Source: Fistulifera solaris (lineage: Eukaryota). From it: a stretch of 64,000 nucleotides of DNA. The stretch spans positions 558,001-622,000 of the forward strand of contig AP026126.1 of the NCBI GenBank assembly GCA_030295235.1, written 5' to 3'. Below the pieces are notes generated by a model. That model made no database searches. It was not told where the DNA came from and was given only the letters and a program-made list of their open reading frames with translations. Below are positions 1 through 57,137 of the stretch, piece by piece. Position numbers and translations under genes: made by a program. Each line of letters opens with the position of its first letter. Position 1 is the first letter of the stretch.

Positions 1-26
1 TAGCTCAAGTGTTGACGGTTTATCGC

Positions 27-47
27 CACGACTGCATTTCAGTCATA
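27..47 (+). repeat. Dispersed palindrome copy CACGACTG-CATTT-CAGTCATA
   Basis: Matches the 56855 copy at 20 of 21 nt; lies about 165 bp upstream of the DXR ATG. Confidence 0.8.
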
Positions 48-210
48 AATCAATCTCATCAGAACCGGTGCGTCAGGAAGACACACGTTGAAGCAATCGT
101 CATCGCAAAATGGACGACGGATGAGAGAAGGAACAACATCAACATCAATAAGAGCCGACCTCCCTCCAAATATTTAATACAGAGTAGGTCTTCTTGCACT
201 CTCTTTTACC

Positions 211-1711
211 ATGAGAATACAATCAACTGCTATTTTAGCTCTCACTAGTGTCACTTCCGCGTATGTGGTGACGACCCCCAACGAGTTCCGTCGCTGTGCA
301 CGCCGCTCCGGGCTCGTTGGGGACGGGAGAAGGATGGATTGATCCTTCGGCACCCGTCGGAAGTGCCGCCTCTCTCAAATTAACGCTCCAAAAATCATTG
401 GAAGGATGTGAAAACTTTACCAAGCGTTTGAGTTTGCTCGGATCGACGGGATCGATTGGGACACAGACGCTCGAAATTGTCGACGCGTGTCCGGACAATT
501 TTGTGGTTGACGCACTCTCGGCGGGGACGAATGTGGAATTGTTTGCGAAGCAAGTTCTTAAGTATAAACCGAAAGTGGCGTCTTTGGCGACCGCGGAAGC
601 GGCGGCGGAGTTGAAAAGAGCGTTTGGTGGCGGCGGGATGTACCGAGATGCCCCAGATTGTATTTGGGGACGAAGGTATCTTGGAAGCGGCCACCGTCAG
701 TTCCGCGGATACGGTCGTCACCGGTATTGTCGGCGCGGCGGGTCTCAAGCCAACGATTGAAGCTATCAAACTCAAAAAAGACATTGCTCTCGCTAACAAA
801 GAAACATTGATTAGTGGTGGGCCCGTCATCAATCCTCTCGTCGAAAAATACGGAGTCGGAATGGTGCGTCTAACGCAATGATACTTTTCTTCTTTGCGTT
901 TGCTCATCTCTCACTCACATTTTTAACGACACAGCTCCCCGCGGATTCCGAGCACAGTGCTATCTTTCAGTGTTTGCAGGGTGTCCCGGAAGGAGCTCTG
1001 CGTCGCATCATTCTTACCGCATCGGGTGGGGCCTTTCGTGATTTCTCCAAAGAAGAACTGTTCCGCTTGTGCCAAGAAGATCCGCGCATGATTCAGGCCA
1101 AGGCCACTACTCATCCCAACTGGGATATGGGTGCCAAAATCACCCTCGATAGTGCCACCATGATGAATAAGGGATTGGAAGTCATTGAAGCGCATTACTT
1201 GTTTGGAGCCAGCTACGACGATATCGATATTGTGATCCATCCTCAATCGATTGTGCATTCCATGATTGAAACACAAGACACGTCTTGTTTAGCTCAATTG
1301 GGATGGGCCGATATGCGTTTGCCGTTGGTGTACAGTGTTTCATGGCCGCACCGACTCCGTATGCCCTACAAGCCACTCAATTTGGCGGAACTGGGAACGC
1401 TCACGTTCAAAGCACCGGATACGGAAAAGTATCCGTGCATCAAATTAGCCTACGAAGCTGGAAAGATGGGTGGAACCATGACCGCCGTGTTGAATGCCGC
1501 CAATGAAGCGGCCAACGAAATGTTCCGGGCGGATGTCGGTCTCGGATTTCTCGACATTCCTCGATTAATTGAAGGTGCCATGGAAGCACACAAGGAAGAG
1601 TTAAAGACAAAGGACATTGTTTTGGACGATATTCTGAATTACGATCAATGGGCACGCCAACATGTTCGTATTGCGAGTCAAAAATTGGACAAGAACCAAC
1701 TTTTCGTATGA
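211..1711 (+). CDS. DXR: 1-deoxy-D-xylulose 5-phosphate reductoisomerase (MEP pathway), plastid-targeted; intron 864..934; apparent frameshifts near 265-270 and 613-617
   Basis: Motifs [64 protein letters not shown]. Leader [18 protein letters not shown] resembles a diatom bipartite presequence. The GT..AG intron joins GM to LPADSEH. Confidence 0.95.
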
Positions 1712-1869
1712 AAGCAAGGTCAAAGTTGGATATGCAGGACATTATAACTCTTTGATAATAAAGCTTCCTTTTTATCCATCCTTACGGCTCCATCATTTGT
1801 CACTAAGTCTAGCCAAACATCAAATAATGACGACGAAGATCGACGCAATAATAACGTATTAGTATTCAT

Positions 1870-3084
1870 TCAATCCGATTTCGACTGACTTTTCGTATTG
1901 AGAGGCCTGGCAATTCCGTCCTCACCAAGTTGCAAGCAACGGTTCGAATGAATGACTTCATCCGTCACAAATTTTGACTGCCCAGGAGAAATCACGCAAA
2001 AATCGATGCCATATTTCTCTAGAAACATGAGATCGGCCTTCGCCGGTGCCTCGGCAATCACTTGATCCACACATGACACGGAGCACGCATTTAAAATCTT
2101 GTCCGTCATGCTTTCTCCTGGAACTCCAACGTATAGCTTCGAACCCATGGCTTTTGCCTGAATCCAAAGTCGGATCGTTTTGTGATCGAACGAAGTGACA
2201 TCGCCACTCACATAGACTACCCGACTGATAACTTTACGACGCACGGACTCATAGGCCAAGGGAACTGCCAAAAATAATACAAGGACTCCGAGGTAGCGCG
2301 TAAGGGGTATGATGAAAAGAGCTGTGCCCATCATTTCAAATGTTTGTTTGGCTTTTCCGACGTGATCGGCGGTGACAGCACTCGAGGAAAAATCAAATCC
2401 TTCCACCTTGGGTGCGGGTAATCCCCCGGACGTGAAATAAGCACGAAATCGAATACATCCACTAGCTGTTTCCGCCAAAATGAGCGAAAATAGCGTAAAG
2501 TACTGCAGCAACTTGATATAAGTCGAACCGGGGACAGTATTTAGCAGCAAAAATCCAGCAGGGGATGACGAAGGCTTTGTCACAGACTGCATCGACGAAT
2601 CCTCCATAGGAGCGTTGACGATGAATAGTGACCCACGAATCCAAGCAATGCGGCGATCCAGTGACGACCACTTCAAACGAGTCCTTATCCGAGTTGGTGG
2701 GCGAGGAAGCCCGTTTTTCCACTTTGTCATCTGTCGATGATGATTCCTTTTCTTTGGCCTTGTCATTCCAAAATCGCGCCACAACTCCATCGAGAAAATC
2801 ACCCAAATCCACCAACACCACCAAGAGAGAAGGCACCAGAGTGTGTCCCCACGCGAGCAACAGTAGCGTCGGTACGACGAGAATCGTTCGGGCGTACGTG
2901 ATGAAATTCGCGGTACACCAAACCGGAATGACATGATCGTCCAAAATTTGCCGCAAAACTTGATTGATGGCTCCGTAAAACTTTTCGTGAATCGCAACGA
3001 ACGGACGAATGAATGACCCGAGATAAAGTTCGACTAAAACGTCGACGAAATCCAAAAGAGGAGAGAAAACTTCTTTTGAGCCAT
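1870..3084 (-). CDS. CDP-alcohol phosphatidyltransferase fused to a C-terminal cytidylyltransferase-like domain; apparent frameshifts near 3065-3077 and 2549-2553
   Basis: N-terminal ANFITYAR and DLGDFLDGVVAR...GGFVDAVCDK match the CDP-AP signature. C-terminal VVYVSGD...QAKAMGSKLYVGV...VDQVIAEAP...FLEKYGIDF resembles the choline/ethanolamine-phosphate cytidylyltransferase fold. Confidence 0.8.
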
Positions 3085-3619
3085 TGCAATAATGCCAGAG
3101 AATGAATAGGTTTCAATGTCAAAGCAATGGCTGATTACAGCAGTTGAGAAAGCAGTGGGAAGAAGTAGGAGAAGGAGAAGAGTATTTGTTGAAATAAAAA
3201 AACACTTCTCGCTTGTTGATGTGTGTTTGAAAGCGGAGAGCACAACAACAAGAAAGTGAATAATAACGCGGAGATCGTGTGTTATTATTTATTTGACGGA
3301 GTTCTGGTCCGTTCGGTGCGCCGCAGCGGAGGGAGAATTTCGTTCGCATTGAAGAAAAGCGTTGCGACATGCAACGGTACTCAACTTCTCCTTGTGCACC
3401 CAACCAGTACTCTATAGTCGATATAGTCAAAAAGAATGAATCTCTCCACATCGACAAGAAGAGATCATTCAACCACATCACATGGATGCAGCCATCCATC
3501 ACAAGAATTTGCTTCCCCCGCAAGGCGTGAATTTTGATTTGCAACAGAATTTCATTGTCAACTTGGCACAAACTTTCATATTTTCAAGAAAGAAAAAGAA
3601 GAAAAGAATAGTAGAGACT

Positions 3620-5834
3620 ATGAAAGCACTCACCAATCTCATTGCGGGTACTCACAAAAGAGACAAACACGGGGATTCGTCTCCCGATGAGCTCGATATT
3701 CATATCAAGCGCAATACGGTAACGATATCATCTACAGTTATTGCTGCCGATGAACCATCTGATTCCTGCATAAGTTGGGACTGGCGTGCCAATACGAGTC
3801 GATCGCCCCCTGTGCAAGAAGAAGCGCGAACGACTTTGGAGTCACCACCCCTTTCCACCAAGAAGAAAGATTATTACGCTGGTTCGGCAGAAATTGCGAC
3901 AGAAACATCCTTGACAGTCACAAGGTTGGAGCCGGTAAGTGTTCTGTTGCATCAAGAACATGTTCGGGTGTCGTTTATCTCACACAATCTGACACGTTCA
4001 CCGCTTACTGTAGAGGAGAAAACTCACGAAAGATTCGACCCGCCTCGTGATTGCCTTGGTCGGCCTTCCCGCACGAGGAAAGTCCTTTGTTGCCCGGAAA
4101 CTAGAAGCCCATTTGCAGTGGAGTGGGGCGCAGTGTAAGATCTTTAATGTAGGAAAGTACCGTCGCAAGGCATACGGGGAAACCATTCAAAAAGAACAGC
4201 GGGAAGAGATTACGGAGCGAGACCAGAAAGGGGCCTGCAACGCCGATTTTTTCGATCCCAGCAACAAGAAGGCGGCGGATTTGCGACAGAAAGTAGCGGA
4301 AATGGCACTTCGAGATATGCTGCGGTGGTTGGATTGTGAGGACGAAACCGACTACGACGATGACGCCTCGTATCAGGGAGAGTATCATCGACAAAATACC
4401 GCTAGTTCCTACGGAACCACCCGTGCGTACGTCGAACACGGCAGGATTGCTATTTTCGATGCCACAAATTCCACCGATAAACGAAGACAGTGGATTCTGG
4501 AAGAGTGTACATCTCCGGAAAAGAGAGTAGGGAAGCAGACGGGAGTTGTATTTGTGGAGTCGGTGTGTGATGATCAGGAGTTGTTGGATGAGAATTTCAG
4601 GTACAAAGTTGCCAACAGTCCGGATTTTGAGGGTATGTCGGCGGAGGAAGCGCTGGCAGATTTGAAAAATCGTGTGGCAAAGTACGAGTCAAGTTACGAA
4701 ACAATCCAGGACGATTCGCTCTCGTATATCAAAGTGTTTAATCTTTCGACAAAACTTTTGGTGAATCATATTTATGGGCGTATGGCGAAAGACTTGGTCC
4801 CTGCCTTGATGGCTTGGCACATTGGTACAAGACCTGTGTATCTTTGCCGTCCCGGACAGACCATGTCTGGCATTGTGACCGACGGGGAAGACTATGTAGC
4901 AATGAATTCAATCGACCCATCCGATCCCCGTTTTCTTGACATGTCAACCAAAACTCGACGAAGAAGTATGCGCGGGGATAGTCTCGGGCCGAATGGGACC
5001 AAGTTTCGAGAGAGGCTTTTCGATTTTTGTTATCAAGAAGTCCGTGAGTTTGTTGCAAAACGCGCCAGCGTCCGAGATAATGTCTTTACGGGCACCTCTA
5101 TCTCAGGTTTGGCAATTTCTTCCGCACCGAGCGCGGATGGGACGTACTCCAGAAATGATCCATTCCCATTGAAACTCATTACAAGTACGATGCCTCGAGC
5201 AGTCGATACAGTCCGATGGGATGACAACGAGTTCAGCATCACTCAAATGTCGAACTTGAATCCACTCGACAAGGGTGATTTCGTTGGGAAAGAGATTGAC
5301 GAGTGGAAGAGCTTCGATCCTGCGTGGTTTGCCAAGCTTGAAAGAGATCCTTTCGGAACACGGTGCGTATCTGACCTTGTATTGGTTTTCTTTACTCATC
5401 TCTTGGCTCACATTATATCAACTCTTAGATTTCCTGGGGGCGAAAGCTACCATGACTTGATACGCCGGTTAACTCCTGTTATAATTGATGTTGAGCAGCA
5501 AGTTGTCCCGACCCTTGTCGTTAGCCACGTCAGTATCTTGCAATGTCTTATGGCGTATTTTCGCAACTCTCCCGTTGATAAATGCATGTCAATTGAGGTT
5601 CCACTTCACGCGGTGATAAAGTACACACCCGTTCGTGGTGGCGGATGGAGCGAGACCATCATTTCATTACACGACAATACTGAAACGATGCCTCTCGTAC
5701 CTGTGCTGTCGACAGGGGAGTTAAGCGCGATGAGTGGTTCGGAGCACGGTCCTATCTGGAGCGACCATTTGACGGCGAATCCGTGTGCATCCCCGTCTCC
5801 GAAACCTACAAAACCAATACGTTTTGTCACGTAG
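3620..5834 (+). CDS. 6-phosphofructo-2-kinase/fructose-2,6-bisphosphatase family protein; introns 3935..4013 and 5363..5428
   Basis: P-loop VGLPARGKS, FNVGKYRR, IAIFDATNST, VFVESVCDD, RFPGGESY. Removing the introns restores the frame and the RFPGGES motif. Confidence 0.92.
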
Positions 5835-5991
5835 TATGAATGGGTGTTCTAGCGAAGCTGAACAGTATAATTTGTAATCAACATTTACTATGTATTTCTT
5901 GAAGAACCCTTCACATTTGGGCCCAACAACGATGTCAATAATCTCGTGGGTAAGGTGACATTATCACCATATACCTTTACAAGCTGCTAAA

Positions 5992-6934
5992 TCAAATGGA
6001 CACAATGTTATCTTCTTCTATGGCCTTTGCTTCTTTACTTTCCATGTCGGACTCGTGCTTTGTTTTAGAAGCATCTTCGTGTAGACTCTGGTCAAGGTGC
6101 GAGGCTGACGTCTGGCTATCACCTCCCACGGAGCTCTGTATTGTTGATAAAAAGACAAGCACGATGAGGTACGGATACAAGTGGAGACGAAAATGCAATA
6201 CCATGACACAATCAACTTACCTTATCGCCGTCTTTCTTCTGGCGTGCGTTCGCGGCGCGCTCTCGGCGTTTGCGATTCTTGATCTCAAGCTCGGCGGGGC
6301 TGAGTTTCTGATAACGTTCCCTTTCAAGTTTCGCGCGCCTGGCGTTTCGCTCTTTGGCATCGTCCGAGGTGAGAGAGTGATAGCGGTTACGTTCGCGCTC
6401 GCGGCGCTTCTGGCGACTGTTTTCGGACTGGCGATGATACTGTTCGCGTCTCTTCGAGTTATACGCACGACGCTGCTCGGGGGTCATGGTGGCATATCGC
6501 TGACGGTCTTTCAATCTTCGAGCGGCAAGCTGCTCTTCGTGTGATAGAGATCCTTTCTTTTTGGGTGGGCCGGGCTTCACTTCGTCCTCAACAGACTTCT
6601 CGCGGTAGCGTTTCCTGCGCTGCTCATTTTTCTTCTGTTGAGCTGCTTCTTCGGCGGCGGCAACCGCCTTATCGGAGTCTTCCACAGCCTCAACGGCTAA
6701 CGCAGCGGCGAGAGCAGCAGCGTCATCGACCGCAGATGCTGCTTCCACAGCAGCTGCTGCCGCTTGCGCGATCAACATAGAAGTCGTGTCATCGGCTTTC
6801 GATTTCTCGTCCTCCAAATCCTTGACATCGTCAATATGGTCAACCTTGACATCATCGTGATGCTCTTCGTTCGTAACCGGTAACCCGTCTTCCGCATCTG
6901 CGCTGTTCGTGTGAGAATGGTTTTCGTCGACCAT
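5992..6934 (-). CDS. Hypothetical basic helical-repeat protein, possibly nucleic-acid binding; intron 6136..6220
   Basis: 240-aa ORF with an acidic/Ala-rich N-terminus and Arg/Lys-rich repeats. A GTAAGT donor and CAG acceptor join in frame to SSVGGDSQ...NIVSI*. Confidence 0.7.
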
Positions 6935-7653
6935 GATGGCGATGGATGTTGGTCTTGACGTCTGTTCTTTGATGTGGATGATGGGTCTGTCGAGGTCAGC
7001 CGTCTGTTAGCTTGTCTCGTTCGCTTGTTGTCGTTATGATGTTGCGATGCAAGACCGCAAGACGGTCGGTTTTTGGTTGGTCGGTCTGTTGTGTGCATGG
7101 TGCGTGGTGGCTTCGTTCGTTCGTTTGGTTTTTGAAATTTTCTTCTGCTGCAACTTTCTCTGTAGGTTTCGTACGGAAGGCTACGGGCATCACAGCAAGA
7201 TAGATTTATTTAGCTACTCCACTGAACACAATTACCGATAGTTACTTTTTCAAAGTAGAAAGATTACTGGGCCTACGTATTGCATAATATCTACGTACAT
7301 TAGCTACAGGAATGCAGAATGATTACTTATACTGGTACCTTGTACTTTGTACTTTGTCCTTTACTTATAATAATGAGTCCAATCTATGCGGATACAGTTT
7401 GAGGCAGACGTATGCTGTTGATCTGTACAAAACCACCTCACCGCATACCGGTACCGTATGGTAAGCTGGGTCAACTTGGATGCCCCTTAACTTTTAGTGT
7501 AAGGCGCTTTTCTGCAGGTTTGAATTTATTCCATTCACATTCCAACGAGATCACTTTGTTTTTCCAGAACCGACACAATATCACTCTTCGCGAAGCATAT
7601 AGAGTGAAATCATCCAAGTAGCTGACATTACCCAAATTCGTGACATGCCATCG

Positions 7654-8205
7654 TTATAAGCTTTTGTGACGGTACCGTGCCTCTTTTAGTTGCTCAACGG
7701 ATCTTTGTACTGAAAACGAGTCATTTCGAAGCCACAAAGCAGCCAATGTGGTTAAAAAGTTTCCCACGAATAGTCCTTGATGGTACATTACTGTCATTGA
7801 GGAGGAGTCTTCCCCTTGAATACTTCGAGCATGAAATAAAATCGACGAGCCCAACAATAAACTTATAATCCACGGAATAACGAGTATCCATCGCAGTTGA
7901 GTTGTGGGAGTCGACGGCAGTGCCACACCAGGAGTCAACACATGGAGAGTTGCCGTCATTAGAACGTGAATCCAACGGAAGAGTCTTCGCGATGGAACCA
8001 AAGCTTCACGCACTTCCAAGAAAAGAAGCGAAAGAATAGAAAGAATAGCCGCTCCAATACAAATACCACGAAAAACTAGATTGATCTCTCGTTGTTGCTT
8101 GTCCATTTCTTGCGCGAAGCGATGGATTATCTGGTCTTGATCGTCTGTGTCTAATATTTCCACTGTCTTGCTCGGTTTCAAATCTTGATTTTTTCGTCTT
8201 CTCAT
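7654..8205 (-). CDS. Hypothetical membrane protein (about 4 hydrophobic segments)
   Basis: 183-aa ATG-initiated ORF with four hydrophobic stretches and a basic C-terminus. Confidence 0.65.
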   Translation of the reverse strand: MRRRKNQDLKPSKTVEILDTDDQDQIIHRFAQEMDKQQREINLVFRGICIGAAILSILSLLFLEVREALVPSRRLFRWIHVLMTATLHVLTPGVALPSTPTTQLRWILVIPWIISLLLGSSILFHARSIQGEDSSSMTVMYHQGLFVGNFLTTLAALWLRNDSFSVQRSVEQLKEARYRHKSL

Positions 8206-8505
8206 ATTCTTATTCCATATAGTGAATTGCCCATTGATTAATGTTCTTTGTCAATTGCATAAAAGGATAGTCTAATTCAATACACGCCGCCGTTTTGCGT
8301 TTGCGTCGTCGCCAGTTTTTTACCCATTGTCGTTAATCGCGTTTCCTTTCAACTGAGTAACGGTCCGACACACCGGAAGTATGCCGCGGTTCGTCGTCTT
8401 TCACAACATTTCTCATGATGTGACCTATTACACGCTACAGTATTTGTTGCCCTTTTGCCATTCGTTTTCAAACAATAGCTTGGAGAGTCAATTAAGTAAA
8501 TAAAA

Positions 8506-9886
8506 ATGACATCGATGAAGCCACCGAATCGTTGGGACGTTACGGGGTTTCCTGTTTTCGCTCTTTCGTGGTTTGGCGACCCGGATGACGGCACGTCGAT
8601 TGTGGCCTGCAGTGGCGGTGGAGGAAGCGCCAAGACGGGTGTCAAGAATTACATTTCGGTAACGATCAATGCCGATCCGGAAGCGCGTCAAATTAGTACA
8701 GGAACTAATGTGAGTGGAAAAAACGTGTATTTGTGAAACTGAAGCGAAATTCTGACCTTGATATGCCTTCTAGCTCGGCACGAAATTGCACATTTACAAA
8801 AGTCAACAGACACAAAAACTATGGCTCCTTGCTGGAGTGGCACTGGAGAAAAGCGACATGGGAGGCGAAATTCATCGCTACAGTCTCCCCGATTGTAACC
8901 TGGATTGCTTTATGAAGCTAGAGACCCCTGTGAGTGCTTTGGCTGTGAATCCGATGACGGATTTGATAGCGGTTGGTTGTGAAAATGGCACCGTGGCGGC
9001 CTTTGCATTGTCCGATGATGGGTTTGGTGAACAGTTGTATACGTGTCAAAAACATACAGAGGAAATTTGTTGCCTCACATTCACTGTTCGAGGATCCAAG
9101 CTGCTTTCCAGTGCGAAAGATGGAACCTGTCTTGTCTGGGATGACAAAGATGGATCTTTGTTAAGCGAGGTCACATGCGAAATTCCAGCGGAAGATCCTG
9201 CTTTGAATAAAAACAACAACAAGAACAAGAGAAAGCCGAGGGCAAAAGGCAACGTGATTGTAAGAGGCTGCGCATTTGGAGATCTCGAAGGAAATATCTT
9301 TTATTCTGTTGCATCCTATCGAATGGGAAGCTCGTATCTTTACCGATGGTTTGCGGATCGAAACAACCCATCACAGTATCAACTGCATGATCGAGTTGCT
9401 TGTACACAGTCACCAGTTTCGGCCATGTCTTTGTCACAGGATGGTGGATTGCTTGTGATGGGAACAACAGAAAGCTCGGTGACTCTTTGGGGAACGGCCG
9501 AGTGGCGGCCGCTCAAAGTCTTCCGCGAAGTCCACGGATTTCTCCCTACCTGTGCGGCTGCCCGACCTTTTCCCGTCGCTCTACAAGGAGAGGAAGATGG
9601 AGTTCAAGTTCATGCCCGAACCGGATCAGGAGATGGCACCATTGCATGTATGACTCTACAAAAGTCAGCTCCAGGCGCGATACCTAAAGGTTCGTCAGGG
9701 GGTTATGCATTCATGTTACTATTGCACCGGCTACTTGTGGCCATGATACTTGGCTGTATCTTTTCGCCAGTCTTGAAAGAAGCTCATACCAGATGCCGTG
9801 CCTCTGAGACCACGGCAACATGTTTATTGCAAGAAGGATTCTATATCCCGAGTTCAAGGCTTACCCTAGAGTCAAAACCTTATTAA
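8506..9886 (+). CDS. SEC12: SEC12/PREB-like WD40 guanine nucleotide exchange factor for Sar1; intron 8710..8773
   Basis: Sec12 K-loop signature GGGGSAKTGVKN, WD40 repeats (LLSSAKDGTCLVWD) and a C-terminal transmembrane segment. Confidence 0.8.
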
Positions 9887-10053
9887 GTAGACGCTCTTAC
9901 GTGAAGATTATAATGAAAACGCTAAAAGGCTTACAATGGTATTATCATTACAGTAGCTTTGCCCGGCCTAACTACGGAAGAAAGGTGTTTTCTCGTATTA
10001 GCTGTACAGTGTGGGTGGACCAAGAAATCTGCCATACTTCGTCGCATGAACTT

Positions 10054-11420: not shown

Positions 11421-12502
11421 ATTACTCCATTGACTTCAGAAAGATACTTTGTGCTGCAAGTTCATTGAAAAGAGTGGAGCAGATGGCAGGCCAGGATCAA
11501 GGAGATGATGGGAACTTTTTTCCAATGGAGATTCGAGATACCGACTTCAACCTCCCAAACCTTCAAGCTGTCCAATTGGCCAGTGTATTATCCCAAGAGT
11601 ACTAACCGCGAACAGGTTGAATCGTGAACTTGATTACCGGTAAGATTCGATGCACTGTAGAAAAGACACACGCTTCAATAAAGACAACCAATGAGAATTC
11701 ACCGCCAATTGCCCAGGCTTGCAACTGTGAACGAAACTGTAAAACGGCAACTTTCGCTTTTCGCGGTAATTTTTTCTTTGGTTGCTACTCCGGAGTAGTT
11801 GCGATGAAAGACGAAGCGGAAGGGGGAAGAAAACGAGCGGAACAAATAGGAAAGTATCAGATCAGCTCCTATTTTACTGCTGAAATTCACTTACAAAAAC
11901 GTCTACAACAACTGAAATGATAATGCTGCGACCCCCAGAATTTTTATTGGCCTTGAATAAAGACGGACGATACAGGGTGGCACGATCGATTGACATTCCC
12001 CTCGCGCCATTTTTATGAAATTTTTTCGAACGCCTCGATTAATCACGAATGACTGTGCAATCACGAGTTCGATGACTCTCCAGTCTCCAGCTTTCCAGCA
12101 TTGATCGTCGGGTAATACAAAACATGTTCGATGTTTCGAGCTCAATTCATCATGGCTGTGTCCTACATAATAAATTATAGTTGTTGAATTATGTGGATAA
12201 TTTTGGTACCGTTTGAAGTGAGCACACGCTTTGATAACGGTTCCGTGATTGATTATAACGGTAATCGCTAATTGACTTTCGTGATGCAAACGTCTCACAA
12301 GGTTATTTGCAGGGACAACGTCATTGGGGCACTGTTTGTTCCGAAGTGCTCGCTACTTGCTTTGGCCGTGTTGTCCGTTGCACGAGGCTCGAGCGAGGCA
12401 TGGCAACGAAACCACAAACCACCATGTTGTGTGCTGCAACTTGCTGTTGATAAACGATTGAAAGGCAGCACATCATTTGTTTCTACCAAATTTATTTGAA
12501 AT

Positions 12503-13160
12503 ATGGATAATCCATCAGCGTTTGACACCTGTCCAACCATTGCGCCCTTCCTGGGTTATGCGGGTGTGGCTTTGTCGATTATTCTCGCGAGTGAGTGACC
12601 TACAATGTCCACAAGAACGAATAATAGATTGGTTGGCTGACTGTGTTCTCTTTTCTATCATAGACACTGGGGCTGCAATGGGAACAGCTAGAGCAGGTGT
12701 GGGTATTATGCAGAGCGGAATAAAAAGCCCTGACCTTGTTTGGAGAAACTTAATTCCAATTGTCATGGCCGGTGTGAATGGTATTTATGGTTTGATCACC
12801 AGCATCGTTGTTCTTGGGTCAATCGCCATGCCGAGTATGGGAGGAAATAACCGCTATTCACTGTATACTGGTTGTGCGCATCTCGCTGCTGGGCTTTGTT
12901 GCGGTTTAAGTGGCCTCGGTTCCGGCGCCTGCATCGGTATTGCTGGTGATGCCGCCATTATGGCTTGCGGATCGTACGATGTCGAATCAAAAAGATCGAT
13001 TGGAAGACGCCGAGGCGACGGAAAGAAGAAATCTGGCGGCGGAGAAAAATTATTTGTTGCCATGGTGTTGGTACAAGTTTTTGCTGGGAATATCGCTCTG
13101 TACGGCTTGATTGCATCGATCATCCTTAGTCAACAAATATTTTATTGCGGGGGTGAATAA
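12503..13160 (+). CDS. V-type ATPase proteolipid subunit c-like protein, atypical (no conserved Glu); intron 12591..12663
   Basis: APFLGYAGVA, GAAMGTARAGVGI, LIPIVMAGVNGIYGLI, HLAAGLCCGLSGLGSGACIGIAGDA, ALYGLIASIIL. Four-TM proteolipid layout. Confidence 0.9.
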
Positions 13161-13432
13161 ACAAAACCGTAGGCACACTACGCGTCGGTATCAGAATATA
13201 CAGGCAAACTAATTGCAACTTTGTCAATCATACAAGAATAAGTAAGTTACCATAAACTTCATGAACACACTTCATTCTTGAGGCACTGTCAAAACTTTAT
13301 TTCTCGCTAGATTTCATTTCGCTGGATCACTATCAACAAGTGAAGCCAAATATTTTTTTGATTACAGGCCGTTCGGCTGGCAAATAGCTAATTTCAAAAG
13401 TCCCAGATGATTGGCGTCGTCGACACGACTTG

Positions 13433-13676
13433 AACGACTTGATTGCAGTCGTGACCAGAACGAATACGAATGATATGGCAAACAATAGGTTAACCAATGA
13501 AAGAAGGATATTTGAAAGATGTGATTGCGATCAACGCGTGGTGACTAGTCTAGCTTAGCATAGTCATTTGCGTCGTGCGACTACGATTATCTGTGTCGAA
13601 AGGCTCGTTCTTTGGAAAAACTGCACTATAGACACCAAGTGTAGTCTCAACTTTAACGTGACTGGATTCAGTCATG
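13433..13676. repeat. Pair of dispersed palindrome copies (13433..13453, reverse orientation; 13657..13676)
   Basis: AACGACTT-GATTG-CAGTCGTG and CGTGACTG-GATT-CAGTCATG. Confidence 0.6.
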
Positions 13677-14205
13677 ATCACAACAAACATGGACGATTGG
13701 AAGGGGAACAACTAGTTTCACAAAGGAAACAGATATGCTACAGATTATCTAACAATTGAAAATAAAGGTAACAACATTATCATTGATTTGACTTTTCAAT
13801 TGTTCGCATCGGAATTCTTCCGGATCTATATTCGCAGCTACGTTTTGCTCGGTACTTGTACCTGACTCACCGGTACCCGATGATGTTCACAGTTGTTTTA
13901 CTCGCCTCGTTGAATTTTTTTTGAATGGTGCCCCGTCGCTTCATGCTTCTTTTAAATCATTAAGATCGTTTCGATTAAAAAGAGGCAACAACTTAGTAAT
14001 CATCAAGCACAGGAGAGCAGAAAGGTGACAAGGGACAGGCACGCCGTTTGCGAAACTTCTGTTGCTGTGTGTTCCTTATTTTGTCGGCAATTACTTTAGA
14101 AATTGATGTCAGACCAAGCCAGCATACTAAGCGTGCAAGGACGTGGTATCTTTTCGTAAAGCCAATCTGTGAGTACCTGGCTGGAAATTTTAGCGTTTTT
14201 TCACG

Positions 14206-16376: not shown

Positions 16377-16483
16377 AACCACTAAGTTAGAATGTTGCAT
16401 GCGGCATAAGAGGGAATATGATTTGAAATCGCCGTCAATGGGGAATTCTAAAGCGGTTGTAACCCTCAGCAGCATGCGTAAGA

Positions 16484-27682: not shown

Positions 27683-27934
27683 AACGACTGGATTTCAGTC
27701 ATGAACAGATTTCGGAAAGCGTTCACAACTGCAACGACAAAATATGCATGTATATTCAAATAAATTGCCATTCACAATATCGTTACTAGTCACTAGCGAT
27801 CAGTTTCATTCGATGTGCAGGACCTCGATGATATGCTGCATGCTGTATGGCAAAGCCTCCGAGTCGATGACTGACAGGTTCACTATCGTCTTGAAGTGTA
27901 GGTTATCGGCCCCCGCGACTGGATTTCAATCATG
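27683..27934 (+). repeat. Pair of dispersed palindrome copies (27683..27703; 27914..27934)
   Basis: AACGACTG-GATTT-CAGTCATGAAC and CGCGACTG-GATTT-CAATCATGAAC. Confidence 0.75.
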
Positions 27935-28309
27935 AACAAGATGAGGGAAACAATTTATGAAGCAAAGATGCCAGCCAATGCACCACCTGTATATTCAAAT
28001 AAAATGGCGCTGGCGGTACCTGGTATTGTTACCTTCTATGAACTTCATCCGAATTTGAAAAGGCGAAAATACGTTAGCGTTCATGGGAACGAAAACTTGG
28101 CCGATTGGCGTCTGACCATCGCTCGCTTACCAGCAAGGTGAGGGAAAAAGTGTACACTCACGTAGGCCCCCCGTAGAGAAATGTACCAAGCAGAGGTGCG
28201 TTCCCGTGTCTCCCCTAGCGCGATGTTGCCGTATTCAATATCGCTCTCATCCTAATTGCTAACTTATCGTCTTTGCTTCTTTAAGATCAGACAAATTATA
28301 AAATTTACC

Positions 28310-48754: not shown

Positions 48755-49677
48755 GCTCGTCTAAGTCTTTATCTATTTAGTGAGAAGTTTGTTTTTATAA
48801 CGTAATTTATTACAGTAATCAGTGTTTTTTGAGGAGTGACGACTCACGATCCTAATTACTCCGTACTCCGTAATTTTATTCCCTAATTTCCTAGAGTCAG
48901 AATGCAATTTGACATTCGGACTGATTTTTTCGTTGTCCATTTTCATTTTCTCACAAATAGTTCAAGCTGGCCCCGTGCTGAGTAACTGAGTAAGCTCTCT
49001 AGAGCTACTAGAGAGCTAGTACTGGTAATGGGCGAGTCCTGTTTACTTGTTGAAACCAAGATTCGTCTGAGAGTTCTGCGTTACTCGATTTTTCATCTTT
49101 CAAGATTCAAGAATGAAGAACAACAAAGATCAAAGATCGCTTTCGGCGTCAAATAGTGATAGGGACGAGTGAATCTGTATTCCTCATCGAATCATTCACG
49201 ATGAGCAGGTAGTAGCGATGGGTGTATTAGAACATACCGTAGGTGAAGAGCTGATCAATGTTTTGTCTTTCATGGATTCCAACAATGGAAACGGCCAATC
49301 ATGAAGCTCGTGAGGCACTTGTCGCTTTTTGCACTGTAATTGATTGCGGTATAACTCTTCTCTGGCATTGCGGTCGAGATATCATTCTGCTCTGTTGAAC
49401 GCAAATCTTCAATGCAAAGGCAGTAACATCGAAGCAACCGTAGAGTGGCAAAAGTATGTCAATGCGGTCCTACAAACACCTTTTTGTTTGCAGTTGGGCA
49501 GAGGGGATAGTTACTATTCAACGTTCCGAAACGATATTGAGTAGATGCTCTCACTATATATTATCGAGTGAAAAGAACGCATAAGCGAAGAAATATCATT
49601 CATCACCGAATCCTTTGATAAAAAAATCGTGGTCTTCCAGATGCACCGTAAGCCCCAAGGCGCAGGCGGCCTGTCTC

Positions 49678-50022
49678 CACCACAGCATTCCAGTCATGAA
49701 TCAGGGTCGTTCCGAGCTATCAAACTGATATTAAAGCGCCGTTCGGTCTGCTGAAAGTGGTGAGCCATAATTAACTTAATCACATACTCCTTAGCATTTA
49801 TCTATAGCAACCTTTGCAATACATGCCTCGATTGTTTCCGTCGGGATCATATCTCTGGAAAACCGTTACTGTCTGTCGTGTGAACTATACTCTCAAAGTG
49901 TAAGCGACCTTTCTCCACGACTGCATTTCTGTCACGAATGAACGATCATTAATTTCTTTCTTTTTATGAACTATACTCTCAAAGTGAAGGCGACCTTTCT
50001 CCACGACTGCATTCCTGTCATG
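49678..50022 (+). repeat. Three dispersed palindrome copies (49678..49698; 49916..49936; 50002..50022)
   Basis: CACCACAG-CATTC-CAGTCATGAAT, CACGACTG-CATTT-CTGTCACGAAT and CACGACTG-CATTC-CTGTCATGAAT. Confidence 0.75.
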
Positions 50023-50036
50023 AATGAACGATCATT
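49881..50036 (+). repeat. Tandem duplication of a 70-bp unit (49881..49950 and 49967..50036)
   Basis: The copies differ at 4 of 70 positions, and each contains the CACGACTG-N5-CWGTCAYG palindrome. Confidence 0.9.
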
Positions 50037-50246
50037 GATCATAGATCGCAATCGCAATCGCAGAGACTAATTTTCATTGAAGGATAATAAGCTTCTATTC
50101 GTTTCGTCGCCAGCTTTTTGTTTGATAAACTCAGTGGCTGCATCTTATTCGCTGAACTGGATGAAGCACCTAGTATTGACGTGCTATTCGTTGTATTGTA
50201 CCCGACGCGCTTCGTCCTTCTTTTGCCGTCCAATCCAGACACTAGA

Positions 50247-51060
50247 ATGAAGAAACGAGTGCTTTCGACTAGAGCAACGGCGGAAACTGGGCTCACAAAG
50301 ATATCGGCTACTGTGACGGCTGCTAATGGTAACGATGGCAAAACAAGAAAGAAATCAAGACAAGCAGTGGAGGAGAGTATCACGGACGAAACCAGTGCCG
50401 GTGATTTCGTGTCGAACCCTTGGTACACTTTTTTCACAAAAGACGATGTCGAATACAACGAGTACATGGCAACCGAGTGGGGCTTTGAGCGCCGGGGAGA
50501 TGCTGCTCTCTTCGAAAAGATTTCTTTGGAGGGGGGCGCAAAGTGGGCTTTCATGGTTGACGGTACTTCGAAAGCGTCCGGCTTATCGAAAGGCGTTCTA
50601 CAATTTTGATCCGGCGAAAGTGGCGCTCATGACAGAGAATAATATACGAAAGCTCATTGATTTTCAGAGTGAGAATCCACGTGACCAGCTGGTTCGACAC
50701 CGAGAAAAAATTGAGTCGGTAATTAACAACGCGAAATGCATCGTTCAGTTGCGGGAGGAATTGTCGACGAAAGAGACGTCGTTCGGTGTGTTTGACGACC
50801 TACTCTGGTCGTTTGTGGACCACAAGCCCATTTTAAATCGTTGTAGCCTGTCACAGCTGCCATCGAAAAGCCCAGAGAGCGAAGCAATGAGCAAGGCACT
50901 CAAAAAGAGGGGTTTCAAGTTTGTCGGTCCGACGACCTGCTACTCGATGATGCAAGCGATCGGAATGGTGATCGATCATCCAATGGATAGTCCCGAATGG
51001 TTGGCGGCTCACGAACGATTGAAACAGAGGCCCGGTGGGTTTCAGGAGAGATCGCCTTGA
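50247..51060 (+). CDS. tag: DNA-3-methyladenine glycosylase I (TAG family); apparent frameshift in G6 near 50531-50536
   Basis: EWG, LFEKISLEGAQSGLSWLTVLRKR, FYNFDP, VRHREKIESVINNA, MSKALKKRGFKFVGPTTCYSMMQAIGMVIDH. Confidence 0.92.
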
Positions 51061-51653
51061 GAACTCTACGTGTGCAGAGTTGCTAGATTTATACAAACCA
51101 GTGTGATAGCAAAGATATGATTTAGAACTAGATTATCATTTATTGAAATTATCTCAATGAGGTCTGACCACTAGCTAGCCAAAAAATTGGGACTTGTACT
51201 CAACGTCTGTCAAACATATTTTAACCACGCCACTGATAGACGCGCCATTCACCGGGCCCTAGCAAAGTAAAGCCCTATTTGACTGAGCTTCTTGCTTGTG
51301 AAAGTAGATAAGAGGAAAAGCAATAGCGTGAAGCGGAGGAACGCCAGAGTTGTCACTAGATAAGAGGACCTTTACGGTTGGCAGTGTTCATGACTGAAAA
51401 TAATTTTAAGTCGTCGTAATTAATTACGATGTATTACAAGACTTATGACAACTCGTCAGTCACGAAAGTACGTATCCTCTTATTCTTTCTCATTCCTCTT
51501 TGCAGCGCTTCGTGTCTTCACACCACATCATCGTCGTCATCATCATTTATTTCAAGGCTTAACGTGTTTTGACAGCCAATTCAACGGTAAACCTCGAAAC
51601 AGATTCAAGCACGTAATACATTTCAAAACTGAAACAGGCTGCAAGACTTCACA

Positions 51654-52769
51654 ATGAAATTCCAGTCGACAATTACCGCCTCCCTGTTGGCGACAGCCTT
51701 CGGTTTTCAGCCCCCACAACAACTCTCTGTGAGAACGACATCCACAGAACTTCACATGTCTTCTGTTCTACCGAAAGCCGCCGTAAAAGTTGCCACGATA
51801 GCTGCTGGAGCTGCCTTAGCAGGAACCGCCGGAGTGAAACTGATCCTTGACAAACCATCTCGTACGTATGCTGAGGGATCCGTCGGTGACGAGTATGATG
51901 CATGGACATCCGAGGGGATTTTGGAGTATTACTGGGGCGAACACATTCATCTGGGTTACTATACCCCTGAAGAAATGAAAGCCGGTTACAAAAAGAAAGA
52001 TTTTATTCAAGCAAAATACGATTTTATTGACAAAATGATGGAGTTTGGTGACATTAACCCCGCTCAGTTCAAGAATGCCAATGTTCTCGATGTTGGCTGT
52101 GGATTTGGTGGAACTTCTCGGTATCTCGCTAAAGCACTCGGGCCCAGTTCTCATGTAACGGGTATCACTCTGAGTCCGAATCAGGTGAAACGTGGTACAG
52201 AGCTGGCGGTAGAGCAAGGTGTTGCCGACAACACCAAGTTCATGGTGATGGATGCCCTCAAAATGGATTTTCCAGACAACTCGTTCGACATTGTTTGGGC
52301 GTGCGAAAGTGGAGAACACATGCCTGACAAAAAGGCATACATTGAGCAAATGATGCGTGTTCTCAAACCTGGAGGCAAATTTGTCATGGCATGTTGGTCG
52401 CAACGTGAGGAAGGGGACCAACCCTTTACCAAGCGTGACAAGCGTGACCTACAATATTTGTACGAAGAATGGTCACATCCTTACTTTGTTTCTATTAATT
52501 ATTTCAAAAAGCTCATTGATGATACTGGTGTGATGGGCGAGGTTAAAACCGCCAACTGGGTCGACGAAACGATTGCGTCGTGGCGCCACTCGGTTTGGGT
52601 CGGTATCTTTGATCCTCGTGGCTGGATTTTCAAACCAAAGCAATATTACAAGTGCGTCCGAGACGCCTACTGCCTCGAACGAATGCACCGCGCTTTCAAG
52701 CGTGGTCTCATGGAGTACGGAATGTGGGCGGCAACCAAAAAGTACCGCCCCAGCCGCCGCCGAGTCTAG
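51654..52769 (+). CDS. Cyanobacterial-type MPBQ/MSBQ methyltransferase (tocopherol/plastoquinone synthesis; gamma-TMT-related family), plastid-targeted
   Basis: SVGDEYDAWTSEGILEYYWGEHIHLGYY, SAM motif VLDVGCGFGGTSR, WACESGEHMPDK; leader MKFQSTITASLLATAFG-F. Confidence 0.85.
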   Translation: MKFQSTITASLLATAFGFQPPQQLSVRTTSTELHMSSVLPKAAVKVATIAAGAALAGTAGVKLILDKPSRTYAEGSVGDEYDAWTSEGILEYYWGEHIHLGYYTPEEMKAGYKKKDFIQAKYDFIDKMMEFGDINPAQFKNANVLDVGCGFGGTSRYLAKALGPSSHVTGITLSPNQVKRGTELAVEQGVADNTKFMVMDALKMDFPDNSFDIVWACESGEHMPDKKAYIEQMMRVLKPGGKFVMACWSQREEGDQPFTKRDKRDLQYLYEEWSHPYFVSINYFKKLIDDTGVMGEVKTANWVDETIASWRHSVWVGIFDPRGWIFKPKQYYKCVRDAYCLERMHRAFKRGLMEYGMWAATKKYRPSRRRV

Positions 52770-52865
52770 AGAAGAAAGCTCAGCGTCTAGTTAAATTACT
52801 AAGAGAATTTCTCATTAGTTCTTAAAAAGGATGTAAAGAAATCATTACAAGCACCAGTCATTTAC

Positions 52866-54005
52866 TTAGTCATTCTTTTTCGTAGCGTCCTCCATTGTTC
52901 GGCCTTGTACTATGTCCATAAACCGGGATGACATGGTTGGGATAGCAGACTTTTTGTCCGTGTCGACAGTATCTGAATTGGACTCAGTCACCAGGCACTG
53001 ATCTTCACCTGACGAATCGGCAGAACTTTGCTCGGGGGAATGGGAAAGAGCCGCCTTCACAAAGCCTTTCATTGCATCCCAATAGGGCTGGCCGCCGTGC
53101 ATGTGAGTATCATTATGTGTACCTTCAGGTACTACGTGCATCCGCACAAGCCGTGATGGCTTGGTTGACTGCAATTGGAACAATTCCAACATTTGCTCGT
53201 GTGGTACGAGTTCATCTTTGCCGCCCGCCATGTACAGCGTAGGTGTCTCCAAGTATGGGGCAATCTTGGTCGAATCCCACCCAATTCTTAATACCAGAGC
53301 CTTGATCGGTGTAAGAAATGGCATGAGCTGATCTACCATGGCGGATATGGATGTAAAAGTGTTTTCCACAATAACACCCGCCAATGGAATATCTTTTCGC
53401 TGCGCAAAATCTGCTAAATGGAACGCCACGGCTCCTCCCAGCGAACGGCCAAACAAAAATACTTGTTTCAGATCGATCCGCGGGTGCGACTGGCAAAATT
53501 GTAAAGCTGCTTCCGCATCCAAACGCAATCCTTTCTCACTGGGCCCGACATGCGACTCGCTGTCTCCGTAGCCACGATACTCCACCAACAACACATTTGC
53601 TCGCAGCTGCTTTGACATTTTAATAGCATTCGGTAATCTTAAGCCAATGTTACCAGCATTCCCGTGAAAGAAGATGACAGTAGGGACTTGTTTGTTCACA
53701 TTGTTGTCGTGAAAAATCAACCATGAGTGTATTTTGACTCCGTCTGGACACGGCATCATGATCGATTCAAAGGGAAGGTCTTCGTATTCGCTCGGGGATC
53801 GGTAGCCTCTCGGATTTCGTCTGGGTGATTTCGGCAAGCCTCCAATGGTCGGAAAGTATAGTAGATTGTCTTGTTTCATATAAAGAATAGCCGCCACAAC
53901 AATCGCCACACCTCCGGTGAAATAACCCAGCCGACAGGCAAAGGTCACCAGTGTCGAAGAGAGAAAGCTACTTTGAGTAGCCAGATTGCTAGAATCTTCG
54001 GTCAT
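52866..54005 (-). CDS. ABHD13: ABHD13/BEM46-like alpha/beta hydrolase
   Basis: N-terminal TM followed by QDNLLYFP, FFHGNAGNIGLR, EYRGYGDS, GRSLGGAVA, VENTFTSI, DELVP, GTHNDT. Confidence 0.9.
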   Translation of the reverse strand: MTEDSSNLATQSSFLSSTLVTFACRLGYFTGGVAIVVAAILYMKQDNLLYFPTIGGLPKSPRRNPRGYRSPSEYEDLPFESIMMPCPDGVKIHSWLIFHDNNVNKQVPTVIFFHGNAGNIGLRLPNAIKMSKQLRANVLLVEYRGYGDSESHVGPSEKGLRLDAEAALQFCQSHPRIDLKQVFLFGRSLGGAVAFHLADFAQRKDIPLAGVIVENTFTSISAMVDQLMPFLTPIKALVLRIGWDSTKIAPYLETPTLYMAGGKDELVPHEQMLELFQLQSTKPSRLVRMHVVPEGTHNDTHMHGGQPYWDAMKGFVKAALSHSPEQSSADSSGEDQCLVTESNSDTVDTDKKSAIPTMSSRFMDIVQGRTMEDATKKND

Positions 54006-54714
54006 GATGGTTCGTTTTTGGAGTATATGAGGATTGTTGTTTTTCGAAGATCGTAATGTTGGTCCGTCGAACTGTGAGGTGCTAAAAATTCTTTTCGATC
54101 GATCGTCGCGTACGTTCTGTTCGTCAAGGAGCTGATCGTTCTACTAATCTCAAAAGAAGTGCACACACGCTTCTTTGATGAACCAGATAGCAAGATAGAC
54201 GACGATAAGACCCACAAAGACCTCGTCTTCATCATTGTCGTGTTGCTATTATTTGCTCTCTTTTCTTTTCGGTTTCCATCGACAAGAAAAAAGCCAAGCG
54301 CTCCTTTGAGTCACGGAGAGATGACTTCAAGTTTATTTTTTAGGACCGAGTCCGCAGTCTGTACGGCGCCTGGAGAAAGAAGTTAGTGAAGTAGAGTGAT
54401 GTCGGTCCCAGTACCGCATACGTCATTTTTGTCATTTTTGCTTGTCAGATCGGTCTCAGTCCTACTTTGGCAGTCACGGTCATTCCGGTATTCATCCACA
54501 CTCCGAGCGATAATTATTTGAAGAATTTATTCATTTGTCGTGTCCCGTGTGTCCGCTTTCCACCATGTTTTATTTTTATTGCTCTCGAAAGACTCCGCGC
54601 TCACACCAACAGCGCGGCCCCGTAGACGCAACTGTTCATTCATTCTTTTAACGACAAGAAGACTTGCTCTTGCGACATACTTTTTTTCTTAGCACTACTA
54701 CATCACGAAAAACA

Positions 54715-56362
54715 ATGAGTGACGACTGGGAACTAAAGATCTGCTGCATGGGCGCAGGATATGTGGGAGGACCGACGATGGCGGTAATTGCCAAACGATG
54801 CCCTAAGGTGCGTTGCGTTGTTGTTAAAACGTTTCTTTGTGTTCTCGATGAGGCTGTATCATGAATAAAGACAGACTTAATTGTCTCTGAGGCCTTACGG
54901 GTTGGGTGATTCTTATGTGTTTCATCATTTGTGCAGCCCGGAGATTTGCCGATGCATCGCACAACGTGCCTTCCCCTGCGTCAAACTCAGTCTTAGCTAC
55001 TTTTCCTAATTCCCTGCTCTACTTTAGATCCGTGTTTGCGTCGTGGACATCTCGCAAAAGCAAATCGATGCCTGGAAGACGGACGATCTTCCTATCTATG
55101 AACCAGGACTTCTAGAAGTCGTTCAGGAGTGTCGCGGTCGCAACCTTTTCTTCTCGACAGATATCGCTGCCGAAATTGAAGCTGCGGACATCATCTTTAT
55201 CTCGGTCAACACACCCACCAAGACACAAGGTATTGGTGCAGGCCGAGCCGCCAATATCAAGAACTGCGAGTTGTGTGCTCGTACGATCGCGGATGTTGCC
55301 ACTACCGGCAAGATTGTTGTCGAGAAGAGCACCGTGCCCGTGCGTACCGCCCAGGCCATTGCGCGGGTCCTCCAGTCCAACGAAAAGGGCCTCAAATTCC
55401 AGGTTCTCTCGAATCCGGAATTCTTGGCGGAAGGAACCGCCATTGCGGATTTGATGAAACCCGATCGCGTCTTGATTGGAGGACAGCAGAGCGAAGAAGG
55501 CTTGGCGGCGGCCGCCAAATTGGTATCGGTGTACGCACACTGGGTTCCCCGTGAACAGATCATTACCACGAATTTGTGGTCCTCCGAATTGAGTAAGTTG
55601 GTGGCAAATGCCTTTTTGGCACAGCGTGTGTCGTCGATCAACTCGATTTCGGCGCTTTGCGAGGCCACGGGTGCCGATGTCTTGGAGATTTCCCGAGCGG
55701 TCGGTATGGACGATCGCATCGGCAAGCGTTTCTTGCAGCCTTCCATTGGGTTCGGTGGTTCGTGTTTCCAAAAGGATATATTGAATCTCGTATACCTCTG
55801 TGAGACGTACGGTCTCAATGAGTGCGCAGCCTACTGGAACCAAGTCATCTTGATGAATGACTTTCAAAAGAAGCGATTCTCGGAAAAGATCGTGGCGAGC
55901 ATGTTCAACACGGTGACGGGCAAGAAGATTGCCATGTTGGGATACGCCTTCAAGAAGGACACGGGTGATGTTCGCGAGACTCCCTCTATGTTCGTCTTGC
56001 GTGACTTGGTGCACGAGCAGGCTCATGTTCATGTCTACGACCCGCAGGTGAAGCGCGAGGACATGTGGATCGAAATGGACTACACGTGCGGAATGAACAA
56101 GGATAATACTCCCCGACTTGAGGAGTCGGTCGTAACGGCCCCCGACGCCTACGCCGCTTGCGAAAAGGCTCACGCCCTTCTCATCCTGACGGAATGGGAT
56201 GAGTTCAAAACGTACGATTACAAGAAAATCTACGAATCCATGATGAAGCCTGCCTTTGTTTTTGACGGACGTAACTTGCTGGATCACGATGCCCTTCGCG
56301 CGATTGGTTTCGAAGTACATGCTCTCGGAAAGCCCGATCCGTTGAAATTCTCTGATCTTTAA
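54715..56362 (+). CDS. UGDH: UDP-glucose 6-dehydrogenase; intron 54808..55027
   Basis: [78 protein letters not shown]. Confidence 0.97.
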
Positions 56363-56854
56363 GAAATGAGTTTTACCAGTGTTCTGCAACAAATTGAAGT
56401 GAGCAATGAACAATGCACCTGTGGCTTGAGTTAAACATAATTAAGGGTTAATTATTAGTGTAAAAAGCCTCCTGCCGTATGTATTTTTAGTTCGATAACA
56501 ACGAAAGTGTCACCATGACGATGATTTTTTGGAGACTGATTTTTGACGACTTCTTTTATTTTCCAGGCTCTTTACAAAGATAGAATGTAAAGTATCTTCA
56601 CCTGTTTATGCTTAGATGGTAAAGCCAAGGACAAACAAAGCTTCACTATGATACTAGAGGACGCGTTTTTAGTTGTGAATTGAGCAAGCATAGAACCAAG
56701 CGATGTATAATCGTCATGGTTATTGCTTATTATGAATCAAGCGACGTTATAGCAAGCATACTTTTTTACTTGGGAGACTTCATACCTGAGCGGCGAAAAG
56801 TGCTGCACGGATCTCGTTGCTCTTAGTAGTAATGACAGAATTGATTTAACATAC

Positions 56855-57137
56855 CACGACTGCATTTCAGTCATGAAGAATGCTTAGAATTTACTATCCT
56901 TACGTCAGAACCGAATCCCTAATGCAAGCTTTATTGCTACAAGCTACCAGGTAGCTAACATGCGGTTGTTCATATTTGTTGACCAACATTTGGTTGTTAT
57001 CATTGTGTATCTATTTATACCAGCACTTACAATCCATGCATCTTCACGTTGAAAAACGTTTGAGTATCGGTATCTTCCCATTCGACAATAGGTATACAGG
57101 TGCGGACAATCTTTTTCACGACTGCTTTTCAGTCATG
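56855..57137 (+). repeat. Pair of dispersed palindrome copies (56855..56875; 57117..57137)
   Basis: CACGACTG-CATTT-CAGTCATGAA and CACGACTG-CTTTT-CAGTCATGAG. Confidence 0.8.

Follow-up and report, generated by a model that had tools for sequence, protein, structure and literature searches.

The 64-kb stretch of Fistulifera solaris DNA analysed here (the window; C6:558001-622000 of a 51.7-Mb genome) carries, among ordinary housekeeping genes, some ten copies of a short intergenic dyad, two 8-nt arms around a 5-nt spacer, that had been noticed in a reading of the letters alone (the sequence-only reading). The dyad marks a real, abundant and undescribed family of repeats, and the dyad itself is constrained. 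Judging from sequence comparison, we give about an even chance to the explanation that it is a putative protein-binding site that a mobile element spread and that the host now maintains at the promoter side of genes.

A scan of the window with the pattern CACGACTG-N5-CAGTCATG recovered nine of the ten listed copies with 0-3 mismatches. The tenth (13657) is also genuine but has a 4-nt spacer, for which a true deletion and a homopolymer error are both possible. The scan gave 15 strand-matches at 9 sites where 0.39 were expected; the largest number in any shuffle was 4, and 0/100 shuffles reached 15. In the whole genome, exact patterns matched 400 and 961 times (the latter with exact arms) and the reversed controls not at all, and the spacer, which had been said to be nearly always 5 nt, has that length in 94/100 listed copies (hand count). 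The proposed scan with a position weight matrix (PWM) was run on 414 kb and found 65 sites against 0.8 expected. Extrapolation gives a genome total of ~3,000 to 7,000 copies, spread evenly along the contigs. Contigs C5 and C6 run collinear, at about 80-91% identity, which makes the genome an allopolyploid. No exact match was found in metagenome contigs, viral contigs or plasmids of public collections. Contigs of one wetland metagenome run (X5), a small share of that run, match the dyad with its upstream boxes amid many unrelated flanks and with C5-type variants, so that the family is present in a wild close relative. Two RNA-like runs have little or no cover over dyad-bearing gaps, which says nothing on expression. 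Dyad-dyad joints were considered as traces of unit circles and rejected, as they carry 22-26 letters on one side and are accounted for by other copies. Our literature search found no published description of the dyad in the accessible parts of the sources.

The dyad had been presented as a free-standing motif, and in this respect the description must be revised. The dyad, with the consensus CRYGACTG-N5-CAGTCRYGA, forms the 3' end of a ~55-bp module with two upstream boxes, ACTATA at -30 to -32 (65/112 copies) and AAGTGT at -19/-20 (63/112), as counted in non-redundant copies picked without an exact pattern. The module is in turn the 3' end of a ~220-bp unit, and units lie in short tandem arrays of 1 to 11, adjacent dyads being mostly 203-271 bp apart and in the same orientation. 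A hidden Markov model (HMM) of the unit body alone, built from 25 units on other contigs, recovers the C5 and C6 units and has 0 matches in reversed sequence. The dyad usually stands where this model predicts it, sometimes with a 1-nt change in the spacer. Between loci the arms are 89% identical and the unit bodies 49% on average. The suggestion of an undescribed interspersed repeat with the dyad as its conserved core is thus borne out, by the homology of units across loci and by the body HMM. Homology ends no more than 14 nt past the last dyad in 73/87 clusters, compared with 3/11 internal controls (p 0.0002; 2 of 89 clusters lacked flanks and were left out). In the upstream direction it extends over varying distances that peak at the ACTATA box, and over less than 15 nt in 40/87 clusters. 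In one subfamily the array opens with a sharp 5' head, CAGAATTTCCGTCTGC, which in most cases precedes the first dyad by 65-73 bp. Nine of its 12 matches lie just upstream of a same-strand dyad and 0 downstream (control 0), and it is present in 5/18 loci fetched later. Read by eye, the head is similar to the opening letters of the unit body, and at one locus it continues straight into that body. It was not found in the window, and a PWM of the head gave no additional dyad-linked matches. The boxes, the tandem unit and the head are features beyond the first description.

The dyads avoid coding sequence, as had been stated: 0/64 sites are in called coding DNA in the 414 kb, which is 58-60% coding, and 0/41 in independent loci. 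Genes were called with a purpose-built Markov model that misses some exons, e.g. the ATP-synthase c gene at 12462-13160. Gaps that carry dyads are long (median 1276 vs 669 bp), and these 28 gaps comprise 15/60 of the divergent, 12/80 of the tandem and 1/28 of the convergent gaps. Among the independent loci, with L131 (8-nt spacer, no PWM match) left out, 0/24 dyads are in convergent gaps (p 0.014), and 26/33 have the next gene on their own strand (background 62%, p 0.03) while 7/33 point away. The dyad thus usually points at the next gene, in keeping with the orientation first stated, but copies are not confined to gaps between head-to-tail genes, since 15 of the 28 gaps are divergent. Because this is the commonest location, an insulator between head-to-tail genes is not favoured. 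The copy that had been placed upstream of DXR is indeed there, with dyad 27-49 lying ~160 bp ahead of the probable DXR start (ATG at 211). On C5 and C6 there are 64 plus-strand and 9 minus-strand sites. Strand polarity on the scale of chromosomes was rejected: concordance on C1-C4 is 0.44-0.53 (p 0.3-0.9), and the plus excess on C5 and C6 is local.

The two subgenomes permit a comparison of orthologous dyads, of which 14 pairs can be aligned. In these pairs the arms are identical at 220/235 positions (93.6%) and the spacer at 56/67 (83.6%; arms vs spacer p 0.02), with the boxes at 84.4%, the linker at 75.4% and the dyad flanks at 2040/2642 (77.2%). Fourfold sites are identical at 8604/10741 positions (80.1%). 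A neutral simulation with the same detection threshold yields 80-82%, and 93.6% was reached in 0/20,000 draws. Since the arms diverge more slowly than neutral DNA, the dyad is probably a docking site for a protein, spread by a mobile element. The arms are constrained beyond both spacer and flanks and their spacing is fixed, as expected of a protein site. From these two properties the dyad behaves as a double-stranded site for a putative dimeric protein, the first of the functions that had been suggested for it.

In the explanation that we prefer, old, lineage-restricted, non-coding units of ~220 bp would have spread both through local tandem duplication and through dispersal as a non-autonomous mobile element. 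The spread itself is seen in homology across loci, in gains in one subgenome and in the sharp 5' head of the subfamily; its route may have been a rolling-circle, Helitron-like one. Spacing and conservation suggest that a dimeric, sequence-specific protein reads the dyad as double-stranded DNA, and the two helper boxes, at a fixed distance, would give the module its direction. In many promoter-side gaps the body would have eroded while the dyad was kept by purifying selection, which is visible as slow divergence. The site would now have a role in the host, most probably the organisation of chromatin or transcription ahead of the gene to which it points. A bolder version, which we consider unlikely, is that a mobile element seeded 3,000-7,000 dyads upstream of about 1/10-1/6 of the intergenic gaps of this compact genome, that selection maintains them in both subgenomes, that a dimeric chromatin factor uses them to organise promoters in general in steps of ~220 bp (nucleosome plus factor), and that younger dyad satellites of like design can replace them gap by gap.

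A number of observations weigh against the preferred explanation. The 14 pairs are a minority, for 51/73 dyads are outside BLAST-aligned blocks, mostly in subgenome-specific arrays, so that turnover is real. All aligned non-coding DNA, which includes uncalled exons and untranslated regions, is 85.6% identical, and this narrows the gap to the arms. When scoring is one-way, the arms of the other subgenome are off consensus at 22/371 positions, against a neutral expectation estimated at roughly 9-10%, and the margin is smaller. Of the 34 clusters that could be anchored (3/37 had no anchor and were left out), 23 are common to both subgenomes, 1 is in the opposite orientation and 10, without any trace of compensation, are missing from the homoeologue. 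The appearance of selection could also arise from gene conversion between copies. Several arrays start and stop in mid-unit, the homoeologous gaps examined yielded no clean empty site whose junctions could be defined, and profile searches of weak sensitivity found no mobilising gene. Finally, the distance from dyad to coding sequence is variable (97-884 bp), and the orientation bias in tandem gaps is 11:5 (p 0.11) and 10:3 (p 0.05).

The main rival, which we judge unlikely, is a purely selfish element, in which the dyad would be the site of mobilisation, kept uniform by recent spread and gene conversion, and the promoter-side location would reflect open chromatin and tolerance rather than any role in the host. 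It draws support from the young, homogeneous arrays (94-99% matches), from the subgenome-specific gains and the 5' head, and from the nesting of the arrays with other repeats in the same large gaps. A parallel satellite restricted to C5, with a similar 5-nt-spacer dyad and a 204-219-bp period, also fits it. However, copies that predate the split of the subgenomes keep their arms at 94% when the spacer, within the same 21 bp, has fallen to 84% and the adjacent linker to 75%. This counts against conversion, whose tracts should not skip the spacer. There are also few decayed intermediates: 54 dyads score above 25 bits and 73 above 10 bits, of which 3.7 are expected by chance.

The sharp 5' heads of some arrays and the arrays that stop just after the dyad suggest a rolling-circle-like mobile origin, and by analogy the family is most like non-autonomous rolling-circle elements with short arrays. 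The search for a partner in the genome itself was weak, because two of the controls matched nowhere. The Helitron profile PF14214 gave no candidate, but its control matched nowhere; the Replitron profile PF21859 gave no match, its control being uninformative; and the tyrosine recombinase (PF00589) and Y1 transposase (PF01797) profiles, with weak sensitivity, gave no candidate. Bacterial repetitive extragenic palindromic sequences and bacterial interspersed mosaic elements (REP/BIME) are imperfect palindromes between genes, grouped in short arrays, which a mobile system has spread and which have been retained. The dyad family resembles them in its thousands of intergenic imperfect palindromes and its short arrays, and differs in that there is no match to a Y1 transposase, no sign of selection for a hairpin, and a location on the promoter side rather than downstream of genes.

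Several eukaryotic element types were tried and rejected. For the tail of a short or long interspersed element (SINE or LINE), there is no tRNA or Rfam match, and reverse-transcriptase loci do not end in a dyad: in 25/26 of them, a lower bound for such loci, no dyad lies within 1.5 kb. Eleven of these loci, when extended, include elements of the long-terminal-repeat (LTR) type without terminal dyads, and they share no common end. A cut-and-paste miniature inverted-repeat transposable element (MITE) was rejected since array ends do not fall at the arms. As to the 5'-TC of Helitrons, a T precedes the CAG of the head in 9/17 head-like matches near dyads, an end unconfirmed by an empty site, and TC is present at 43/97 head-to-tail internal junctions between units. 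The CTRR 3' end was rejected: units end in YGAR, and a hairpin plus CTAG follows 12/87 arrays and 12/87 controls. The same cut-off gives 6/17 in the head-like cases, which is suggestive only. Subterminal inverted repeats of the HINE/DINE-1 kind were likewise rejected, for the reverse complement of the head is absent downstream in 9/9 head-bearing elements. The orientation of the head is fixed, and two candidate right flanks are each shared by just three elements, too few to define a 3' end. As neither the CTRR end nor the subterminal inverted repeats were found, we do not file the family under Helitrons or Helentrons.

The comparisons that follow are with published elements as described in the accessible parts of the reports. 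Non-autonomous Helentrons (HINE, DINE-1, oyster Cg_HINE) carry short satellite-like arrays (PMC4067079, PMC7492417), and like them the dyad family is dispersed and non-coding, with short arrays, units oriented to the 5' flank and no target duplication seen. Unlike them it lacks a matching 3' subterminal inverted repeat, a common right flank and a microsatellite, has its palindrome in every unit rather than once at the 3' end, and bears a head in a minority of arrays. As in Helitrons (Helraiser, PMC4778049), the head often begins with TC and a palindrome stands at the 3' end of the unit; in contrast to them, units end in YGAR and not CTRR, the palindrome abuts the end, and no RepHel was found in a search whose control matched nowhere. 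Replitrons, which multiply by copy-and-paste and have short direct repeats at their termini and a hairpin at the end, are present in stramenopiles, with none found in diatoms (PMC10288648); the dyad family differs from them in lacking fixed termini.

An improbable alternative to an element-spread binding site is a core-promoter module of the host. TATA boxes have a set spacing relative to the start of transcription, and ACTATA, by its position, might be a TATA-like box ~31 bp before a start at the dyad, the rows of modules being duplicated "spacer promoters". The position of this box in 65/112 copies, the 26/33 loci that point at the next gene and the empty convergent gaps (0/24) are as this would predict. 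Yet the last dyad is at a widely varying distance from coding sequence, 7/33 point away, orthologous copies agree in the boxes at no more than 84%, and in 40/87 clusters the upstream homology is under 15 nt. Moreover, the bodies are homologous across loci, so that dispersal is needed, which argues against this alternative.

A site of chromosome maintenance, i.e. a replication origin, a centromere-like unit or a cohesin/condensin anchor every 10-30 kb, is very improbable. The even spread along contigs, the intergenic location and the nucleosome-scale period would suit it, and so would the letters that the dyad shares with a published motif. According to the accessible part of the report, "centromere/ARS" (autonomously replicating sequence) motifs of F. 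solaris are intergenic and dispersed at intervals (10.1101/2021.11.10.468027). The letters in common with the dyad family are only CGACTGAATTT (11 letters, CGACTG-AATTT). The published motif has no second (right) arm, its flanks are unrelated, and its 103 exact copies in this genome, patchy among contigs, form a separate, young and near-identical family. Identity of the dyad with motifs 1-3 as printed in the accessible part of that report, a comparison that covered the motifs and not the supplementary centromere sequences, was rejected on these grounds. Nor do origin recognition complex (ORC) sites in Phaeodactylum share a motif, as far as the accessible part of that report describes them (10.1101/2024.07.07.602421), and there is no chromosome-scale strand polarity on C1-C4. 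A copy of motif 1 lies in the window at 48874-48924 (+). In 20 fetched loci motif 1 opens a dispersed element, young and near-identical among copies, that follows A/T-rich DNA, and 0 of its listed exact copies are on C1, C3, C5 or C7. Motif 1 resembles a mobile element more than it does a centromere signal.

Even less probable is a target for a site-specific recombinase, whose arms would be bound and whose polar 5-nt spacer would be the site of crossover, with circles of units integrating into arrays. The arm-spacer-arm design, the directional spacer, the same-orientation arrays and the termination of some arrays inside the dyad accord with it. But most arrays end after the dyad, and spacers vary within arrays and between orthologues. 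Tyrosine-recombinase sites typically have arms of 11-13 bp and spacers of 6-8 bp, and 8-bp arms with a 5-nt spacer fall short of both.

There remains a hairpin signal in RNA or single-stranded DNA, such as a terminator, a SINE tail or a structured RNA gene, which is the least probable of these alternatives and is not supported. The arms had been called near-perfect reverse complements; the dyad is near-palindromic, but a fixed C/A mismatch separates the arms in 81/112 copies. Arm pairing matches the expectation for independence at nearly all positions, and a hint of covariation at pair 1:19 (73 vs 65.8) is gone genome-wide (14/50 vs 24/100, p 0.69). Perfect palindromes occur at 37 + 71 sites compared with 961 asymmetric ones, and no conserved fold was detected in the unit (mean z about -0.3, structure conservation index 0.06-0.19). 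Together the mismatch, the lack of covariation, the rarity of perfect palindromes and the lack of a fold favour recognition as duplex DNA. When the strand opposite to the next gene is folded, the two common variants form G-U pairs and the dyad reaches -10.8 kcal/mol; a 7-nt tail duplication also follows 18/112 dyads. Both would favour a hairpin. Against it, in addition, no tRNA or Rfam match was found in the window and the reverse-transcriptase loci have no terminal dyad. Arm variants had also been read as CpG/TpG changes. Such C/T variants occur, without a signature of CpG decay: the observed/expected CpG ratio in units is 1.30, and position 2 has 11 C>T and 8 C>A changes.

Hardly any general cis-elements have been described in diatoms. 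A dyad present in thousands of promoter-side gaps, and conserved in both subgenomes of an editable and industrially studied alga, offers a handle on the protein that would bind it, and a way to study the building of regulatory networks by mobile DNA where genomes are compact. The published centromere/ARS motifs are concerned as well, since they look here like a separate young repeat. If the family were purely selfish, it would be an unclassified repeat family of modest interest.

In the window, an AAGTGT box (7-12) and the dyad 27-49 (7..49, +; pattern match) form the second and final copy in an array of two; the first dyad is 239 bp upstream, beyond the window edge, and C5 has an orthologue of the copy in the window. 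A degenerate dyad at 13431..13453 (-; pattern match), whose C5 orthologue has decayed, is followed at 13565..13678 (+) by a unit-body remnant with ACTATAG (13625), the AAGTGT box and the 4-nt-spacer dyad (13657), which has a 5-nt spacer in its C5 orthologue. At 27683..27705 (+) is the first dyad of a pair 231 bp apart, and a complete module of two boxes and the dyad at 27914 occupies 27882..27936 (+; pattern match and unit search). The full unit at 49678..49938 (+) consists of dyad 49678, body 49710-49911, boxes from 49884 and dyad 49916; the held-out body HMM finds it with E 4e-14, and it is missing from the homoeologous gap. Next to it, 49970..50024 (+) is an 86-bp local duplicate of the module (dyad 50002; family D4, 93% identity). 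A second full unit, 56855..57139 (+), has dyad 56855, body 56949-57111 and dyad 57117, both dyads being retained on C5 with flanks 72% identical, and is followed by a body remnant and the left arm of a third, eroded unit (57224..57330, +; weak, E 0.03). The weaker copies that had been listed were confirmed as remnants: 51389..51403 (-) is a half dyad with spacer and right arm only, and 61564..61764 holds eroded box and dyad remains in both orientations, below the PWM threshold and read by eye. Two adjoining DUF6824 genes (59880-63844, -) flank these last remains. Contigs of runs X1 and X5 lack the 941-bp stretch 49155-50097 and its three dyads, as a C5-type allele does, and the left part of this stretch recurs near C6:694189 at 92% identity.

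Other repeats were noted as well. The C5-restricted satellite has the dyad GGTCCAG-N5-CTGGAC, with a spacer that is mostly AATTT, and the same design as the family studied here. It occupies C5:515329-516101, 569098-569722, 619378-621122 and 730905-731998, fills the homoeologous gap of window 27683 instead of dyads, and accounts for 48 sites of TCCAG-N5-CTGGA in 270 kb of C5 vs 1 in 274 kb of C6. Another satellite, of ~34 bp and based on CCCACATTTTCTGG (C5:678480-679140; L121), fills the gap homoeologous to the C6:642628 dyad. A MITE-like element of ~75 bp, whose terminal inverted repeats are long (GACGTTAAAATTCTGCC), is found repeatedly next to arrays (L003, L011, L138, L158, L076; C5 near 525700, 644540 and 672400). 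Comparison of C5:534954-537501 with C6:505053-505827 shows a 6.5-kb insertion specific to C5 that contains, besides an 11-copy array, a neighbouring gene segment in two inverted copies with 68-71% identity. Loci L148, L149, L155 and L151-L153 are 98-99% identical 5-kb reverse-transcriptase elements with 220-300-bp terminal direct repeats, i.e. young LTR-type retrotransposons.

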